Shown here: piece after piece, positions 5,811 through 17,314 of the stretch
How the letters are laid out: every line of letters starts with the position of its first letter
How positions within the stretch are numbered: position 1 is the stretch's first letter
Origin: a virus
IMG/VR virus record: IMGVR_UViG_3300014546_000001
Reading direction: 5' to 3' (one strand)
Length of the DNA: 42,248 bases
Notes under the pieces: model-generated
The model's input: only the letters and a program-made list of their open reading frames with translations
Database searches by the model: none
What the model was told of the DNA's origin: nothing
Translations under genes and position numbers: made by a program

Positions 5811-7286
5811 ATGGAGCTGCAGCCGGAATATATCGGGCAAATGCTTTTAAAGCTTGGGTTTGAAGCTTTTTTCAGGTATTTGTTCCGAGTTATTGAGGGG
5901 CGACCGTTTATACTGGAGCCTATACACCCGGATTTATTTAACGTTTTTGAAGATATTTATAACCTCAAAAGGCTACGGCAGACAATAAACATTTTTCCGC
6001 GTTCATCAAAAACAACATTGTGTAAATATTTTATTGTCTATAGCTGGTGTAAAAATCCAAAATGCAACTTTATTTATACTTCTTATTCGCAGAGCTTGTT
6101 AAATGATATTGCCCGGGATATTCAAAACATAATGGAACACCCGGCATTTAAGGCGATGTTTCCGGTAAAATCCAGTATGGAAAGCGAAACACTAGACCCG
6201 ATTGACGAGTTCTGGCGGCAATACTGGAATAAATCGGAAGACAACAAAAATATTTACTCTTCAAAAAAAATTGTAACCTACGCGGGTGGGATTTGTATTT
6301 TTGTGAGCGCGGGCGGGCAAATTCTGGGATTCGGAGCCGGTATTCGCGGAGCTGATGACTTTTCCGGCTGTTTAATCCTTGACGACTTTGACAAGCCCGC
6401 AGATATAGCCAGCGAAGTGTTACGAACGAAAACAAAGCGATACTATTCAGAAACGTTACTATCCCGCTTGAACGATTATAACGTGCCTATTCTTAACGTT
6501 CAACAACGGCTGCACGTTGACGATATATCGGGGTTTTTAAAAGACAAATACGGATTTGATGTTTTAAAAAAGCCTCTTTTGAATATACGCGGCGAGTGCC
6601 AAGCGCCCAGCCAGTATGATGAAAAGCGCCTAAAAGAGCTACAATTTGACAAGTCGGCTTTTTCTGCACAATACCAGCAAGAGCCGACACTTGAAGAGGG
6701 CAACCTTATAAAGCGCGACTGGTGGCAGTATTATAAGCCGGAAGAAACACCGGTTGAAGGCGTTTTGATTATAACAGCCGATACGGCATATAAAAAATCA
6801 AAGACGGCAGACTTTTCCTGTTTGCAATGTTGGGAGCTTAAAACGGGCAGGCTTTTAATGCGTGATATGATTGTGGATAAGTGGGAGTTTCCCGAGCTTT
6901 TGGAAAATGCTAAAATGTTTTGGGATAAGTGGACACGCTCCGAAATGATTATCCGGGCAAAGTATTTTTTTATTGAGGATAAGGCAAGCGGGATTAGCCT
7001 TGTGCAGACGCTTGAAGATTTGGGCATTAACACCGTTGCTTGGAAACCGAAAGATTTTGACTTTCCCGATGATAAAGTCGGCAGGACAAAAGAATTTTCG
7101 TGGGCAGTATTTTCCGGGCTTGTCTTTTTGCCAGAAAATAATAAAATGAGTGAGTATTTAGTAGAAGAGGCCGCGGCGTTTAAAGAGGATATGTCTCATT
7201 ATCACGATGACGCGTGCGATGCCGCCAATATGTCTTTCTCAATTTGGCGTTATTATGGCGGAATGAGAGATACAGAGCAACAATAA
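5811..7286 (+). CDS. terL: terminase large subunit
   Basis: 491 aa. ATPase P-loop-like FPRSSKTT and a C-terminal nuclease acidic motif (DDACDAANM). It is followed by the portal gene. Confidence 0.85.
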   Translation: MELQPEYIGQMLLKLGFEAFFRYLFRVIEGRPFILEPIHPDLFNVFEDIYNLKRLRQTINIFPRSSKTTLCKYFIVYSWCKNPKCNFIYTSYSQSLLNDIARDIQNIMEHPAFKAMFPVKSSMESETLDPIDEFWRQYWNKSEDNKNIYSSKKIVTYAGGICIFVSAGGQILGFGAGIRGADDFSGCLILDDFDKPADIASEVLRTKTKRYYSETLLSRLNDYNVPILNVQQRLHVDDISGFLKDKYGFDVLKKPLLNIRGECQAPSQYDEKRLKELQFDKSAFSAQYQQEPTLEEGNLIKRDWWQYYKPEETPVEGVLIITADTAYKKSKTADFSCLQCWELKTGRLLMRDMIVDKWEFPELLENAKMFWDKWTRSEMIIRAKYFFIEDKASGISLVQTLEDLGINTVAWKPKDFDFPDDKVGRTKEFSWAVFSGLVFLPENNKMSEYLVEEAAAFKEDMSHYHDDACDAANMSFSIWRYYGGMRDTEQQ

Positions 7287-7302
7287 AGGGAGTTTTTGAA
7301 AT

Positions 7303-8745
7303 ATGACACGGCGCAACAAGGGAAAAACAAGACTTAAAACCGGCAATGCTTTATTGCACGGGGCGGGCGCAAGCACTTGGCAAGACCGGGGAAGTATACA
7401 GCAGGGCGCTATATTCACGAAAAACCCCTATTATAACAACGATTATTATCGGCGCTGGCAAGATTTAGTGCGCTGGTATTATACCGACTGGGCAGCAAAA
7501 AAAATTGTGGATATTCCGGTGCAAGACGCATTTCGTGTAGAGCCGGAAATAAAAGGCTTGTCGGAGGAAGACAAAGAGCAGCTTATAAAATACCAAGAGG
7601 CGATGGGCGGCAGAGATAAGCTTTATAAAGCGGCCATTCAATCACGCTTGCTTGGCGGCTCAATCGTTATGCTCGGTATTAAAGACGAAGAAGACAACCC
7701 GGAAAAGCCGATTGATTTTGACAAGCTGGACAAGGGCGACCTTGCGTTTATGAATGTTGTTAGCGTGGAAAAAATAAGCCAAGTTCAATATGAAACAGAC
7801 CCTTTTAGTCCGATGTATGATACGCCGCGATATTATATGATTAACGGGCAAAAAGTTGATGTTAGCCGCTTGCTGGTGTTTGACGGAAGACCGTTGTTTA
7901 ATAGCGCCTCAATGAACATTTTACAGAATTTTAGATTTAACCCTGCCGGGTTTGGCGAAAGCGTATTGATTCCGGTTTATGACGCGCTTGTCCGGTTTGC
8001 CGGGACGCAAGAGGGGGCGTATCATCTTGTTAATATGGCAAGCGTCCTTTTGGTTAAATGTGACAAGCTTATGGATTTGCAGGCTTCAAATATGGGCGAG
8101 CGCGGTATGCGTATGCTTGAAAAAATGACAGAGCAGATAAGCATATACCGGGCGGGGATACTGTCCGGCAAAGATGTTGATGTTGCACAGCATAGCGCTA
8201 CTTTTGGCAGTGTGCCGGAATTATTGCAGACGTTTGCGCAGGTGCTTGCTGCCGGTTCGGATATACCGGCAACCCGATTCTTAGGGCAAGCCCCGGGCGG
8301 ATTGAATGCTACCGGAGAAAGCGACCTTGAAAACTACTATAACAACGTTGCGAGTTGGCAGAATACCGTATTAAAAGCAAACGAAATAAAAATGTATAAT
8401 ATTTTGGGCGTTTCCTGTTTTGGGCGCGAAAAATGGCAATCAATCAAGCCCGAGTTTGATATAGAATATAAGCCGCTATGGAATTTAAGCGAAACAGAGC
8501 AAGCAACGGTTGACAACACCCGGGCGCAGACAATCAGCTTGCTGGAGCAATCCGGCTATTTAAGCCGCGAGGCTGCACTTGAAGAGTTAAAAGCCCGTAA
8601 AATCTTCATCAATGATATTAAGCCCGAGGATATGCCGGATATGTCGCAGCTTGGCTATATGGCAGGCGCTGGGGATGAACAGCCCCGGACGCCTGAACAA
8701 AATAACGAGTTGTTTGGCAAAATTGCCGAAGTGGGGAATAAATAG
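7303..8745 (+). CDS. portal protein
   Basis: 480 aa, located between terL and the MuF-like gene. Ends with TAG. Confidence 0.65.
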   Translation: MTRRNKGKTRLKTGNALLHGAGASTWQDRGSIQQGAIFTKNPYYNNDYYRRWQDLVRWYYTDWAAKKIVDIPVQDAFRVEPEIKGLSEEDKEQLIKYQEAMGGRDKLYKAAIQSRLLGGSIVMLGIKDEEDNPEKPIDFDKLDKGDLAFMNVVSVEKISQVQYETDPFSPMYDTPRYYMINGQKVDVSRLLVFDGRPLFNSASMNILQNFRFNPAGFGESVLIPVYDALVRFAGTQEGAYHLVNMASVLLVKCDKLMDLQASNMGERGMRMLEKMTEQISIYRAGILSGKDVDVAQHSATFGSVPELLQTFAQVLAAGSDIPATRFLGQAPGGLNATGESDLENYYNNVASWQNTVLKANEIKMYNILGVSCFGREKWQSIKPEFDIEYKPLWNLSETEQATVDNTRAQTISLLEQSGYLSREAALEELKARKIFINDIKPEDMPDMSQLGYMAGAGDEQPRTPEQNNELFGKIAEVGNK

Positions 8746-8748
8746 CCG

Positions 8749-10455
8749 ATGTCAACGATAGTCTTAAATAAAGCTCCGAGCAAGACTCGCGGGAAGATTG
8801 TAGGCAAGGGGATAAAACCACCGAAAGCGATAGAGTGGGAAGCCCGCCGGGCAATTAACCGCGCCCTGCAGGAATTTGACGCTGAAATGGAGTATTTTAA
8901 AAACCACGTTGAAGACTACGCCCCGGCGCAGGCAAGCCGGATTTTATCGGAAATGCAGAACAAGTGGGCAAAAAAGATTGAACCGATAGCTGACAGGATA
9001 AGCGAAAACTGGCTTAATGCGATAAACGAGCGGCAGAAAAAGAAATCAATGGAAGTCTTGCGAAAAGCGCTTGGCGTGGATATATCGGCTATATTTGAAG
9101 ACCCGTTAATACAGCAGGGGCTTGAAAATATGCGTTTTGAGGCGGCGTATTTGATTAAGACGATACCGTATGACAATATCGGCAAAGTTGCCGAGCGAGT
9201 TTATCAATACTACCGGGGCGAGCCTATGCCGGAGGGGCGGACACTCACACAGCAGCTTGCCGAAGAGTTTAAAATAAAATACGAGAGGGCAAAAACTATT
9301 GCCCGCGACCAGACAAACAAGATGAACGGGAATTTAACGCAAATTAGGCAGACCAGCTACGGGATTGAAGAGTATATTTGGCGGACGGCACGCGACCAGC
9401 GGGTTGTTGGCAACCCTGCCGGGTTTTATCCGAAAGGCAACAGAGTTCACGGCAACCATTGGGAAAGAGAGGGGCGCTTATACCGGTGGGACGAGCCGCC
9501 GGAGGACGGGCATCCGGGAAACGCTATAAATTGTTTACTCGGTGAAACTAACGTTATGTTCCCTCACGGTGCAAAAAAGCTCTTTAGACGGCACTATAAG
9601 GGTTTTATTTACATTATTACCACGAAGTCCGGGGCTTTGTTGAAAGCCACACCGAATCATCCAATACTTACTAGCAGAGGCTGGCTTGCGGTTAATGCAC
9701 TCAAGCAAGGCGATAACCTCGTCAAGGCAACAATCAATAGCGGCAGTATCACAAAAGACAACAACGGCAAGCTTGTATCCGAGTTTGGAGAGTTGTGGGA
9801 TTCTTTTAACAAGTCGGAAATTTGCTGTTCCAGTAGTAAATTTGACTTCCACGGCGATGGTATTGAAGAGAATGTCTATATTAAAGACGTCAATAGCCTT
9901 TTGCCGAAATACCGTAAAACCTTTAGCCTCAAGAGCGCTTGCAAGTTCTTTTTCTCCTCTTCCAATATGATATTCAGACGGGCATTTTTCACGAGAAATA
10001 GCAGCTTTTCTTTGTGTTGCGTCCGTTCTTTTCGTCCCTCTTATGGCATCGTGGGCGGCTTGAACAAGACGTTTTCTTTCTTCGGCAGAGGTTTGTTCCA
10101 TCCTTTTATACATTGCGGCAGATTGATTGCGGATAAATTGTCCGTTTTCCGCAAGGATTCTTTTGATGACACCGCGCGAAACGCCGAGTCTCTTGGAAAT
10201 GGACTAGGCACTCTCGCCGTTGATATAGCAAGGGATTATCTTTTCAGGGGCGATATTGATAATGTTATGCGCACGTTTTTTCATTTTGAATACACTCCAG
10301 TGGTTAAAATTGAAAAACAATATTTTGACGGCTTTGTATATAACGCCGAAACACCGGCAGGATACTATATAGCCAACGGCATTGTCAATCATAATTGCCG
10401 GTGCTTTGCCGAGCCGGTTATTGACTTGGACAAATTAAAAGTCCAGTATTATTAA
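8749..10455 (+). CDS. head morphogenesis protein (Mu F / SPP1 gp7-like) interrupted by an in-frame intein
   Basis: The N-extein ends ...YRWDEPPEDGHPGNAIN and the C-extein begins CRCFAEPV, which restores the conserved HP.NCRC motif of the Mu F family. The intein has typical splicing blocks. Confidence 0.8.
   Translation: MSTIVLNKAPSKTRGKIVGKGIKPPKAIEWEARRAINRALQEFDAEMEYFKNHVEDYAPAQASRILSEMQNKWAKKIEPIADRISENWLNAINERQKKKSMEVLRKALGVDISAIFEDPLIQQGLENMRFEAAYLIKTIPYDNIGKVAERVYQYYRGEPMPEGRTLTQQLAEEFKIKYERAKTIARDQTNKMNGNLTQIRQTSYGIEEYIWRTARDQRVVGNPAGFYPKGNRVHGNHWEREGRLYRWDEPPEDGHPGNAINCLLGETNVMFPHGAKKLFRRHYKGFIYIITTKSGALLKATPNHPILTSRGWLAVNALKQGDNLVKATINSGSITKDNNGKLVSEFGELWDSFNKSEICCSSSKFDFHGDGIEENVYIKDVNSLLPKYRKTFSLKSACKFFFSSSNMIFRRAFFTRNSSFSLCCVRSFRPSYGIVGGLNKTFSFFGRGLFHPFIHCGRLIADKLSVFRKDSFDDTARNAESLGNGLGTLAVDIARDYLFRGDIDNVMRTFFHFEYTPVVKIEKQYFDGFVYNAETPAGYYIANGIVNHNCRCFAEPVIDLDKLKVQYY
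9532..10395 (+). other. intein (288 aa) in the MuF-like protein
   Basis: Starts Cys1 (CLLGETNV). Block B TxxH is present (ATPNHPIL). The C-terminal blocks are present (GFVYNAETPAGYYIANGIVNHN), with +1 Cys. The central ~150 codons are low-complexity and F/S/R-rich, typical of the antisense of another gene. Confidence 0.75.
9535..10284 (-). pseudogene. homing-endonuclease-like gene on the strand opposite the intein (NUMOD1-like HTH, NUMOD3-like repeats, DUF559/Vsr-like PD-(D/E)xK), interrupted by an in-frame TAG at 10204-10206
   Basis: The - strand reads MKKRAHNIINIAPEKIIPCYINGESA*SISKRLGVSRGVIKRILAENG...SAEERKRLVQAAHDAIRGTKRTDATQRKAAISREK...GEKELASALEAKGFTVFRQKAIDVFNIDILFNTIAVEVK. The 3' extent is uncertain because the frame stays open over the Hint N-domain antisense. 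Confidence 0.5.
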
Positions 10456-10467
10456 AAGAATGGGGCG

Positions 10468-10815
10468 GTGGAGAAAGGAAAAATGAAAAAGAGTGTTGAC
10501 GAACAGTTAATCGCCCTTGGCGAGAAAATAGCTAAAAATTACCGCCTTATTGTTGCGGTTGCCGCTTTTCTTTATGGTTGTTTTATTTTTGTAAACACGC
10601 AGGCACAGCACAGCCAAGCCATTTTAGCGATACAAAACCAGCACAGCCACGATATAGCCGAATTAAGGGCAAGTCATACAAAGCTGCAGGAGCGGGTAAC
10701 ATTAAACGAAAAAAACTTCAATATGACATCTGTAAAACTGGACACGACATTAAATAGAATATCAACCGACTTGCAATTTATTAAGCAAAAATTGATTGAA
10801 AAGGGGATGAAATGA
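10468..10815 (+). CDS. membrane protein (1 TM) with coiled-coil
   Basis: A hydrophobic segment (IVAVAAFLYGCFIFV) is followed by a Q/H-rich helix. Confidence 0.4.
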   Translation: MEKGKMKKSVDEQLIALGEKIAKNYRLIVAVAAFLYGCFIFVNTQAQHSQAILAIQNQHSHDIAELRASHTKLQERVTLNEKNFNMTSVKLDTTLNRISTDLQFIKQKLIEKGMK

Positions 10816-16110: not shown

Positions 16111-16141
16111 AAAGGCACAAACAAAAAAAGGAGTTTTGTTA

Positions 16142-17314
16142 ATGTTTGTTAAATCGGAACGTGTAAAAATCGGCAATAATTGGCGGATTGACGATGACGG
16201 GTTTATGCTGGTGCGTGCCAGGGTATTAAAAGAGGGTATTTTCCCGTATCGGACAAGTGAAATTGAGGGCTTAAAAGAAGAACAGCCGGTTATAGACGTA
16301 TATATTCCCGCGGCAGAATTTACCCCCGCTGCATTAAAAACAGGCGAGGGCGACCCGGTTATCGTGGATGAACACGAGTGGCGCACGGCAGACAATACGC
16401 TTAAAGACGGGTTGACCAAAGGCACGGTTGCAGGGAATTTGTCCGTTGACAGTAAAGGCGGTGTTGTCTGCGAATTTAAAATTTATGACGCCGACACCAT
16501 TAACAAGATAAAAAGCGGCGAGCTGGTGGAAGTGTCCGCCGGGTATGAAGCCGATTTTGTGAAAGAAGACGGCAGCTTTGCCGGTATGCCCTACGGGTAT
16601 AAGCAACAAAACATCGTATTCAATCATATGCTGCTTTGCCATAAAGGCGAGGGGCGTTGTGGTGCTGATGTTAGAGTTTTTAACAAAAAAACAGGAGTAG
16701 AAAAAATGACTGTAAAAATCCGTTATAAAGTTGGAAATACCGACAAAGAAGTTGAGTTTTCCAACGAAGATGACGCAAAAAAAGCCGAGGATATGGCTAA
16801 AGACTTGTCCGGGGCTAAAGGTGCTGAAATTGACAATGCACTTGAGGAAATCAAGGAAAAGAAAGAACAGATTGAAACCCTGAACGCCGAGCTTGAAGAT
16901 GCAAAGCGCAAAGTTGAGGAATACAAGCAGAAACTTGACGAGGCTTTGAGTCCAGAGGCGCAAGAGGCACTTGCCGAGGATATTCTGGAACAGCGCGAGG
17001 CAGAAGACGCGGTTATTGAAACCGAAGTGGAAGACGAGGAAAAAGAAGAAGTCCGTAATGCTTGCAAGGCAATGAATAGGGCTGAAAGACTTGTCCACTT
17101 GGCAAGCCACGTTATGAACAAAAAAGGCGTTGATATTAAAGACTGGAGCGATGACCAGAAAATTGGCGCGTTTATGGCGATTGCCGCCGAGGCAAAAGCT
17201 AAAATCGGCAACAAAAAGAAACTTGTAGCCGGTGCCGGGGTTGTTTCTGCAAAAACCGGTAACAGCGGACTGGACGCGAAGTCCCGTATGCTGATGTTTC
17301 GTAACAAAAAATAG
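16142..17314 (+). CDS. prohead protease / scaffold fusion (DUF2213-like N-domain, E/K-rich coiled-coil C-domain)
   Basis: The coiled-coil region is EEIKEKKEQIETLNAELEDAKRKVEEYKQKLDEAL. It lies upstream of the capsid genes. The ORF track starts at the TTG at 16136. Confidence 0.55.
   Translation: MFVKSERVKIGNNWRIDDDGFMLVRARVLKEGIFPYRTSEIEGLKEEQPVIDVYIPAAEFTPAALKTGEGDPVIVDEHEWRTADNTLKDGLTKGTVAGNLSVDSKGGVVCEFKIYDADTINKIKSGELVEVSAGYEADFVKEDGSFAGMPYGYKQQNIVFNHMLLCHKGEGRCGADVRVFNKKTGVEKMTVKIRYKVGNTDKEVEFSNEDDAKKAEDMAKDLSGAKGAEIDNALEEIKEKKEQIETLNAELEDAKRKVEEYKQKLDEALSPEAQEALAEDILEQREAEDAVIETEVEDEEKEEVRNACKAMNRAERLVHLASHVMNKKGVDIKDWSDDQKIGAFMAIAAEAKAKIGNKKKLVAGAGVVSAKTGNSGLDAKSRMLMFRNKK

Follow-up and report, generated by a model that had tools for sequence, protein, structure and literature searches.

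The window analysed here is a 42,248-nucleotide stretch of viral DNA (IMG/VR record IMGVR_UViG_3300014546_000001) in which an intein interrupts the gene for a Mu-F-like head morphogenesis protein. We consider it very probable that the locus holds a mobile intein with its two functions on different DNA strands: the plus strand specifies the Hint domain along with the head protein, and the minus strand specifies a free-standing homing endonuclease. The locus belongs to a widespread, apparently undescribed variant of the combined intein and homing-endonuclease element. The coordinates of its parts are collected in Table 1.

The two genes lie in exact codon register; that is, the minus frame shares its triplets with the plus frame (register 0). 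The minus frame is open from 10392 down to 9538 except for one TAG. Its gene is predicted to start at the ATG 10284-10282, and it ends at a TAA that is the complement of the intein's second codon; the last ~65 codons (9538-9738) overlap the N-terminal half of Hint. The first-pass annotation of this DNA had run the gene from 10284 to about 9780 and had described both frames as open over about 580 nt. The end was misplaced, and the open minus frame spans the whole intein. A longer open reading frame (ORF) beginning at ATG 10390-10392, the antisense of the penultimate His codon of block G and 36 codons upstream, was rejected as the start because the minus frame there has an ω (the ratio of nonsynonymous to synonymous substitution rates, dN/dS) of 0.76 and because a Shine-Dalgarno (SD) sequence precedes 10284. 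The triplets TTA, CTA and TCA are absent from the ~250-codon minus ORF (counted from 10287, one codon upstream of the start), compared with 3.5% of the codons in the window's other genes (P ~1.8e-4).

Table 1. Features of the head gene, the intein and the opposite-strand gene (window positions; HTH, helix-turn-helix).
Feature	Position	Strand	Remarks
Mu-F/SPP1 gp7-like head morphogenesis gene	8749..10455	+	568-aa precursor including the intein; stop 10453-10455; single continuous ORF
N-extein	8749..9531	+	261 aa; C-terminal end ...HPGNAIN
Class-1 intein (predicted)	9532..10395	+	288 codons (residues 262-549); Cys1 9532-9534; terminal His-Asn 10390-10395
Hint N-terminal subdomain	9532..9738	+	blocks A, B and N4; TPNHPILT 9649-9672; minus strand also encodes the C-terminal ~65 endonuclease residues
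Read-through linker	9739..10278	+	intein polypeptide residues 331-510; antisense of the endonuclease gene; stop-free
Hint C-terminal subdomain	10279..10395	+	block F FVYNAET; block G NGIVNHN
C-extein	10396..10452	+	19 aa; first residue is Cys+1 of the CRC motif
Putative homing-endonuclease gene	9535..10284	-	249 codons + TAA (9535-9537); register-0 antisense to the intein; one nonsense codon in this copy
SD-like GGAG	10295..10298	-	10 nt upstream of ATG 10284-10282; AGGAG in the 77% relatives
HTH domain, residues 13-46	10147..10248	-	AlphaFold helices 13-21, 26-33 and 37-46; resolvase-type HTH matches
Nonsense codon TAG	10204..10206	-	codon 27, inside the HTH; CTA (Leu) on the + strand
Vsr/DUF559-like PD-(D/E)xK nuclease core, residues 108-198	9691..9963	-	
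Family-invariant nuclease residues	E111 9952-9954; Q128 9901-9903; D137 9874-9876; E146 9847-9849	-	
K148	9841-9843	-	PD-(D/E)xK lysine position in this copy; variable across the family (H or others elsewhere)
Dual-constrained island	9847..9858	both	minus I-A-V-E (catalytic Glu) / plus F-H-G-D
Dual-constrained island	9649..9672	both	plus block B T-P-N-H-P-I-L-T / minus S-K-Y-W-M-I-R-C

Substitution patterns in the two frames

Which of the two frames is under selection? The main comparison set the window against a related locus, L001, with 79% DNA identity across the intein; L001 and a second locus, L002, align with the window without gaps. In the N-extein, the substitutions were distributed over plus-strand codon positions 1, 2 and 3 as 10/9/29. 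Between 10012 and 10287, the corresponding tally was 40/7/17, and plus position 1 is minus position 3. Rates were estimated by the Nei-Gojobori (NG86) method, so that all ω values are only approximate for overlapping frames. The N-extein has an ω(+) of 0.12 and an ω(-) of 1.15. In the centre of the intein (9817-10287), the relation is reversed, the values coming from one divergent lineage only (L001, L005): ω(-) is 0.12, with a dS of 1.25, and ω(+) is 1.12 against L001 and 0.84 against L005. The C-terminal half of Hint again has a low ω(+) (0.18) and a higher ω(-) (0.76). In the N-terminal half (9532-9726), ω is about 0.3 in both frames and dS is depressed to ~0.25 in both, which is the pattern that a truly dual-coded stretch should show.

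The low ω(-) and high ω(+) of the centre indicate that the middle of the intein evolves as a minus-strand protein-coding gene. Codon-position statistics thus follow the minus frame in the centre and the plus frame in the exteins. On this evidence, the plus reading of the intein's middle is constrained mainly to stay open.

Codon columns were also examined across 22 loci. Over most of the endonuclease, the synonymous codons of conserved minus-strand residues vary freely (for E111, GAA in 11 and GAG in 11), and the plus-strand residues opposite them are not conserved. These data bear on a reading in which the minus frame is a shadow, held open by plus-strand codon bias and coding for nothing, with the plus translation as the real endonuclease or linker. 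Register-0 antisense frames can indeed stay open over long distances by chance: opposite the unrelated DUF2213 gene at 16136-17311 (probably a scaffold or protease), there is a 325-codon register-0 antisense run, the longest in the window outside the intein. A shadow frame, however, fits neither the ω contrast of the centre nor the free synonymous variation at conserved minus residues. Nor would it account for a conserved SD and ATG, or for a minus product with a confidently predicted Vsr-like fold facing a plus-strand centre that is unfolded in AlphaFold. We therefore give it next to no credence.

Embedding of the endonuclease gene in the intein motifs

The reading with a coding gene on each strand leads us to the points at which the two are interlocked. 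The endonuclease start of most loci is ...GGAGGttataaacATG or ...TTGGAGGTTATAAACATG, the reverse complement of the block F codons H-V-Y-N-L-(E/Q): the block F His codon gives the ATG, and the Leu and neighbouring codons give GGAGG. The window's clade differs. Its block F, FVYNAET, has no His; the endonuclease starts 24 codons later at another ATG that is antisense to a His codon, and it is missing the first of the two HTH units found in relatives. As a lead only, we record a sigma-70-like site on the minus strand at 10359-10388, ~75 nt upstream of the ATG (TTGACA, 18 nt, TATCCT; 10/12 matches), whose TTGACA lies antisense to the codons for I-V-N in block G.

Two short islands are constrained in both frames. 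In the first, the minus-strand I-A-V-E codons are frozen (xTC 21/22, GCC 19/22, GTG 20/22, GAA 21/22), while GAA makes up only 62% of the other Glu codons in the same genes (17 of the 22 loci). This freezing indicates that the plus-strand F-H-G-D is itself conserved. A mini-intein that has no endonuclease (locus L038) still has WFHGD, and FHGD thus seems to be part of the intein. The second island is block B, whose T, N and H are invariant in the 22 loci. Its plus-strand synonymous sites favour the codons from which minus-strand K-Y-W results: Leu is CTT in 17/22, Ile is ATA in 18/22 and Pro is CCA in 17/22. The same coupling can be seen from the minus side. In 119/152 minus-strand proteins (the best 150 representatives of the profile search described below, plus the homologues P0001 and P0003), a motif near the C-terminus, [WRG][MV][IV][WRG], is the exact antisense of P-N-H-P, and most of the remaining representatives are one position off it. 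The W/R/G variation in this motif is the product that synonymous Pro codons would be expected to give.

These islands also speak for full dual function, i.e. for a plus-strand middle that is a working intein domain, whether as a partner of the endonuclease or as a structural hairpin of Hint. FHGD is conserved with the minus synonymous sites frozen, it persists in the endonuclease-free mini-intein, and block B and minus-strand SKYWxIR are doubly constrained. Outside the two short islands, though, the plus residues are unconserved, ω(+) is about 1 and the predicted local distance difference test (pLDDT) scores are below 50. We regard such a role for the whole middle as unlikely. The first-pass view that the middle of the plus frame looks like the antisense of another gene accordingly holds with respect to ω(+) and the low pLDDT, but the region is not pure filler, as FHGD is conserved.

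The intein and its host protein

The intein starts with CLLGETNV, carries TPNH at 9649-9660 and ends with NGIVNHN, followed by Cys+1 (10396-10398). All of the boundaries originally recognized (Cys1, TxxH, block G and Cys+1) are thus present. Pfam Intein_splicing (PF14890) scores 40.7 bits on the full ORF and 42.7 bits on the intein alone (cut-off 35.8), and NCBIfam intein_Nterm (TIGR01445) scores 24.8 bits (cut-off 24.5). On the strength of these motifs and profiles, 9532-10395 is assigned as a class-1 intein in a Mu-F-like protein, and splicing is predicted.

The host protein was identified through Phage_Mu_F (PF04233), whose score rises from 29.3 bits with the intein to 42.8 bits after in-silico removal of the 288 residues (cut-off 29.6). 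NCBIfam phageSPP1_gp7 gave 33.8 bits on the head protein, under its cut-off of 39.65. After removal, the splice junction reads ...HPGNAIN|CRC..., and an intein-free allele in a more distant homologue, P0256, reads ...HPGQAIQ|CRC.... The score rise and the empty allele agree with the insertion point proposed at the outset, between N and C of the conserved Mu-F HPxNCRC motif. The assignment as a Mu-F-like head protein is further in keeping with the portal gene (Phage_portal_3, 7303-8745), which lies directly upstream.

An AlphaFold model of the full plus-strand protein, made with a 57-sequence alignment, separates the same segments. The Mu-F domain has pLDDT values of 80-93; the block means are 65-89 in the N-terminal half of Hint and 83-85 in the C-terminal half. 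Residues 331-510 are mostly at ~28-54, and residues 383-510 are below 50.

The minus-strand protein

The window's own minus-strand protein gave only sub-threshold matches, to HTH and UPF0102, in Pfam, NCBIfam and PHROGs (best match UPF0102, E = 0.023). It is therefore the family profile and the structure that support its assignment as a nuclease. Among 46 family members, Pfam HTH_7 matched 23/46, MTES_1575 14/46 and DUF559 4/46 (nucleases at E <= 0.01). A profile of these 46 members matches the structures 3hrl (E = 8e-4) and 3r3p (E = 0.02), and the N-terminal region matches the gamma-delta resolvase HTH in the PDB. The AlphaFold model of an intact homologue, P0001 (16 sequences, mean pLDDT 83.5), comprises a three-helix HTH (13-46), a helical linker (54-100), an alpha-beta-beta-beta-alpha-beta core (108-198), and a C-terminal beta-hairpin. 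The order of elements in the core is that of the Vsr-type fold, and the top Foldseek match of the model is 3r3p.

The family's conserved set is E...Q...D...E-x-(K/H), as compared with the E, D, H, D of the EDxHD set (Vsr E25, D51, H69, D97); the catalytic His position is not conserved in the family. We place the nuclease closest to the I-Bth0305I/EDxHD lineage. A Vsr/DUF559/I-Bth0305I-like endonuclease on the opposite strand, as claimed in the first-pass annotation, is thus supported by family scans, substitutions, structure prediction and fold search. Its NUMOD1 and NUMOD3 labels were reproduced by no tool: NUMOD families had no match in the window's minus protein or in the family scans, and the N-terminus instead matches resolvase-type HTH families.

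Distribution of the arrangement

Relatives were found at the protein level only; a blastn search of GenBank phages with the gene gave no match. A single-sequence protein search returned three homologues: P0001, intact, with 249 aa, 98% identity and Leu in place of the stop; P0002, intact, with 248 aa and 77% identity; and P0003, with 280 aa and 31% identity. At L001, a 77% relative, a complete Mu-F intein ORF lies on the strand opposite the endonuclease. At L003, a 31% relative, a complete Mu-F intein ORF again lies opposite (CFSGDTFV...TPNHPILT...NGIISSN|CRC). An IMG/VR scan with an alignment of the three proteins gave 27 loci with relatives at 25-77% identity. At every one of these loci, the register-0 antisense frame runs through the matched region without a stop, over 460-1187 codons. 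The two other antisense frames are closed in 26 of the 27; L031 keeps one open for 219 codons. A complete intein (C...TPNHPILT...[HSKQ]N|C) is present in each of the 19 distinct antisense ORFs that cover the element from end to end, and the antisense ORF of L029 ends inside the intein at the end of its locus. The host sites of the 19 are mostly Mu-F-like N|CRC, with one portal-MuF fusion and one DNA polymerase-like gene with an N|T junction. In the last of these, L031 (3475-7035 of IMGVR_UViG_3300050118_000007), an intein and an antisense relative of 25% identity sit in a 1187-aa DNA polymerase-like gene (NVVR|C...VVSN|T). That this host gene is not a MuF gene indicates that the element has moved between host genes.

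The stop complements TTA, CTA and TCA are absent from the endonuclease region in all 20 other distinct loci tested, over a GC content of 37-68%. Given each locus's own codon usage, the chance of this absence ranges from P = 0.14 to 1.7e-11; the summed log10 over the 20 loci is -84 if they are taken as independent, a figure that overstates the case. The 162-aa mini-intein P0172 (L038), which occupies the same site and has no endonuclease, served as a negative control and has 4 stops in that frame.

The wider family was reached only with an exhaustive profile search, which returned 2,687 cluster representatives at E <= 1e-3, of which 1,577 were at E <= 1e-10. The best 150 of the 2,687 are all stand-alone proteins of 183-394 aa. 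With tblastn, 115 GenBank phage records were matched, including Salmonella (62), Pseudomonas (15), Klebsiella (8), Gordonia (8), Aaphi23 and Edwardsiella MSW-3. Among the matches listed, all fell under an annotated head, MuF-like, structural or hypothetical protein. In the two records that were opened (Aaphi23 and Gordonia Angelicage), the annotation covers only the gene on the opposite strand, and the minus ORF has none. The endonuclease gene thus appears to have been missed in many phage genomes, only the head protein being annotated in the GenBank records examined.

The antisense layout is family-wide and is kept in every relative examined, down to 25% protein identity. The first-pass annotation had left a choice between an unusual dual-coding arrangement and a decaying, reverse-oriented free-standing endonuclease gene that had invaded a mini-intein. 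Taken as a recent accident in this phage, the latter would make the open plus frame transient luck. The nonsense codon in this copy and the in-frame endonuclease deletions in relatives are what such an accident might leave. As a one-off event, however, it would have to produce the same layout and register in 27/27 viral loci, in L003, and in phages Aaphi23 and Gordonia Angelicage, with endonucleases diverged to 25% identity and in at least two host genes (MuF and DNA polymerase). Start signals embedded in block F and two motifs constrained in both frames also speak against it. A one-off accident is contradicted for the family as a whole, and we hold it to be quite improbable as an account of the locus; the decay is real for this copy. 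A maintained dual-strand layout is thus the favoured half of the original choice, given all of the relatives examined.

State of this copy and its alleles

At the nonsense codon, the window is one substitution away from the 98%-identical relative L002, which has TTG (Leu) at the window's TAG. The TAG allele is also found in L034-L037, four contigs from other samples, and thus cannot be put down to faulty sequencing. Its plus-strand reading is CTA (Leu), which makes it harmless to the intein. The next in-frame Met of the minus gene (10113) has no SD. From these comparisons, the endonuclease was probably inactivated in this copy, recently, by the change of TTG to TAG.

One could alternatively suppose that the TAG is read through or recoded (for instance as Gln, by a suppressor) and that a full-length endonuclease is still made. 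The ORF has no further lesion, and the TAG allele occurs in several samples. Yet the portal gene stops at a TAG (8743-8745), the window's genes need no other in-frame TAG, no tRNA gene, suppressors included, was found in the window, and the codon differs by a single substitution from the ordinary Leu codon of a near-identical relative. Readthrough therefore strikes us as highly unlikely, and the earlier description of this TAG as the only internal stop, and a genuine one, stands.

Together with the window's nonsense allele, related head genes supply the stages that an intein's life cycle is expected to pass through; a comparison of intein-containing and intein-free alleles had been proposed at the outset. 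The endonuclease alleles of L001, L002 and L005 are intact. P0175 (L039, 1501-2961) has a 200-aa intein with an in-frame deletion of ~88 codons that removes the remaining HTH together with the linker and the helix carrying E111, and both strands remain open; a similar central deletion can be seen for P0173 in the plus-protein alignment. P0172 and P0174 are different mini-intein alleles at the site, and P0256 has an empty site. The decay lesions observed in related head genes are substitutions and in-frame deletions only, which fits the presumed ban that the host frame places on frameshift decay. Separately, the exteins of P0172 (L038) and P0174 are near-identical to those of the window, but the same N|CRC site holds a 162-aa mini-intein of another type; this indicates that two intein types compete in closely related phages.

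Proposed mechanism

In the mechanism that we propose for the split of functions, the Hint halves (9532-9738 and 10279-10395) of the plus-strand precursor would excise the intein post-translationally and ligate ...AIN to CRC.... The stretch of ~180 residues that separates the two halves would be translated only because it is in frame, and it would evolve almost freely save for the ban on stop codons and the need to keep FHGD. From the minus strand, a separate endonuclease with its own ribosome-binding site and ATG would be made, consisting of the HTH, the helical linker and the Vsr/I-Bth0305I-like nuclease. During co-infection it may cut head-gene alleles that have no intein, close to the N|CRC codons (junction ...GCTATAAAT|TGCCGGTGC...), and repair would then copy the intein and the endonuclease gene together.

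A register-0 antisense overlap should be cheap to keep, as the endonuclease gene need only avoid TTA, CTA and TCA. The antisense orientation might uncouple expression of the endonuclease from the strongly expressed late structural operon. The overlap might also shield the endonuclease gene from frameshift decay, since a frameshift would destroy the head protein as well. A plausible origin is that an intein captured a free-standing Vsr-like endonuclease; a parallel would be the proposed intron scenario of 'collaborative homing', which PMC2988022 mentions.

Several points weigh against this account. A scan of 9300-10800 for promoters and terminators found sites no commoner than in shuffled sequence. 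FHGD is conserved beyond the needs of the minus-strand protein, and the plus-strand centre is thus not wholly unconstrained. To these we add the weak database matches of the window's own minus protein, together with the approximate nature and narrow base of the ω estimates given above. Three steps, moreover, are ones that we infer from sequence: transcription and translation of the endonuclease from the minus strand; its activity, target site and homing; and protein splicing despite the 180-residue insert. Finally, this copy combines an intact intein with a recently dead endonuclease gene and may no longer be mobile.

Comparison with known systems

Nuclear rDNA group I introns include some with endonuclease genes on the antisense strand. 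As in those introns, the endonuclease gene here is opposed to the host gene inside a self-splicing element. Such introns, however, are untranslated and impose no dual-coding constraint, whereas each endonuclease codon here is also a sense codon in the host frame.

Canonical large inteins such as PI-SceI and TliVMA carry an in-frame LAGLIDADG or HNH endonuclease domain (PMC8966425). The present element resembles them in that an endonuclease-coding insert divides Hint at the usual place, between blocks B/N4 and F, in its position in a conserved host motif, and in a homing cycle with endonuclease decay, mini-inteins and empty sites. It differs in that the endonuclease is a separate protein, specified by the complementary strand with its own SD and ATG, and in that the insert is mostly unconstrained peptide.

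The known I-Bth0305I and EDxHD Vsr-like endonucleases are intron-encoded, free-standing or located between split-intein halves, according to Taylor et al. 2011 (PMC3239194) and Dassa et al. 2009 (PMC2677866); term searches within the text of these two sources found no arrangement antisense to Hint. Similarity of our family to I-Bth0305I is marginal (profile E = 0.021), with a resolvase-type HTH in place of any detected NUMOD and without a clear EDxHD set. In the fractured genes of Dassa et al. 2009 (PMC2677866), the host gene is split in two ORFs whose products are trans-spliced, and a free-standing endonuclease ORF lies between the split-intein halves. The present locus likewise has, where inteins take up an endonuclease, a gene whose endonuclease product would be translated separately. 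Its host ORF, by contrast, is continuous (568 codons; likewise in 27/27 loci), cis-splicing is predicted, and the endonuclease gene is antisense and fully overlapped.

Hidden HNH insertions of the ShiLan type, which lie in phage methylase genes on the same strand in another frame, have no detectable splicing domain (Arsenault et al. 2025, PMC11855218). They share with our case an endonuclease gene that is overlapped by a stop-free host frame, occurs in phages and was missed by annotation; the gene here instead lies antisense and in register, its product is Vsr-like, and a complete Hint domain surrounds it.

The openly searchable full-text literature yielded no account of an intein that carries its endonuclease in antisense. 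It seems to us rather more probable than otherwise that the family constitutes a large, unannotated intein class, defined by an independent, antisense, codon-registered endonuclease gene whose ribosome-binding site and ATG lie in the antisense of block F, and whose catalytic hairpin and C-terminus are dual-coded with intein motifs. The extent of the class is ~2,700 protein clusters and at least 115 GenBank phage records, in MuF genes and at least one polymerase gene.

If this is true, it would rank first, both in spread and in support, among the long antisense overlapping gene pairs known in bacteriophages, and it would answer in a new way the question of how inteins carry a mobility function. 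The antisense codon-registered endonuclease represents a third intein architecture, beside the in-frame domain and the same-strand ORF between split halves. Claims of long antisense overlapping genes are contested for prokaryotes and phages; the family described here provides clean evolutionary evidence in the form of reciprocal dN/dS, avoidance of stop complements at a GC content of 37-68%, embedded start signals and two dual-constrained motifs. It also raises several questions. How is the endonuclease expressed against a late structural operon? Is a selfish gene protected from frameshift decay by the overlap? And can Hint accommodate an arbitrary 180-residue insert?

Genome context

The window also encodes a major capsid protein, a cement protein, a DUF3383 protein (likely the tail sheath) and a DnaB helicase. 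Together with the portal gene, these genes mark it as a tailed-phage genome. Between a D12 methyltransferase gene and the portal gene, where the large terminase would be expected, lies a 491-aa ORF (5811-7283) with no Pfam match at E <= 1e-3. Among the contigs that share the TAG allele, L035 has an extra free-standing NUMOD4/HNH_3 endonuclease gene (6757-7299) upstream of an RNase H gene. L034 and L036 are without it, which points to a second, polymorphic homing element in this phage group.

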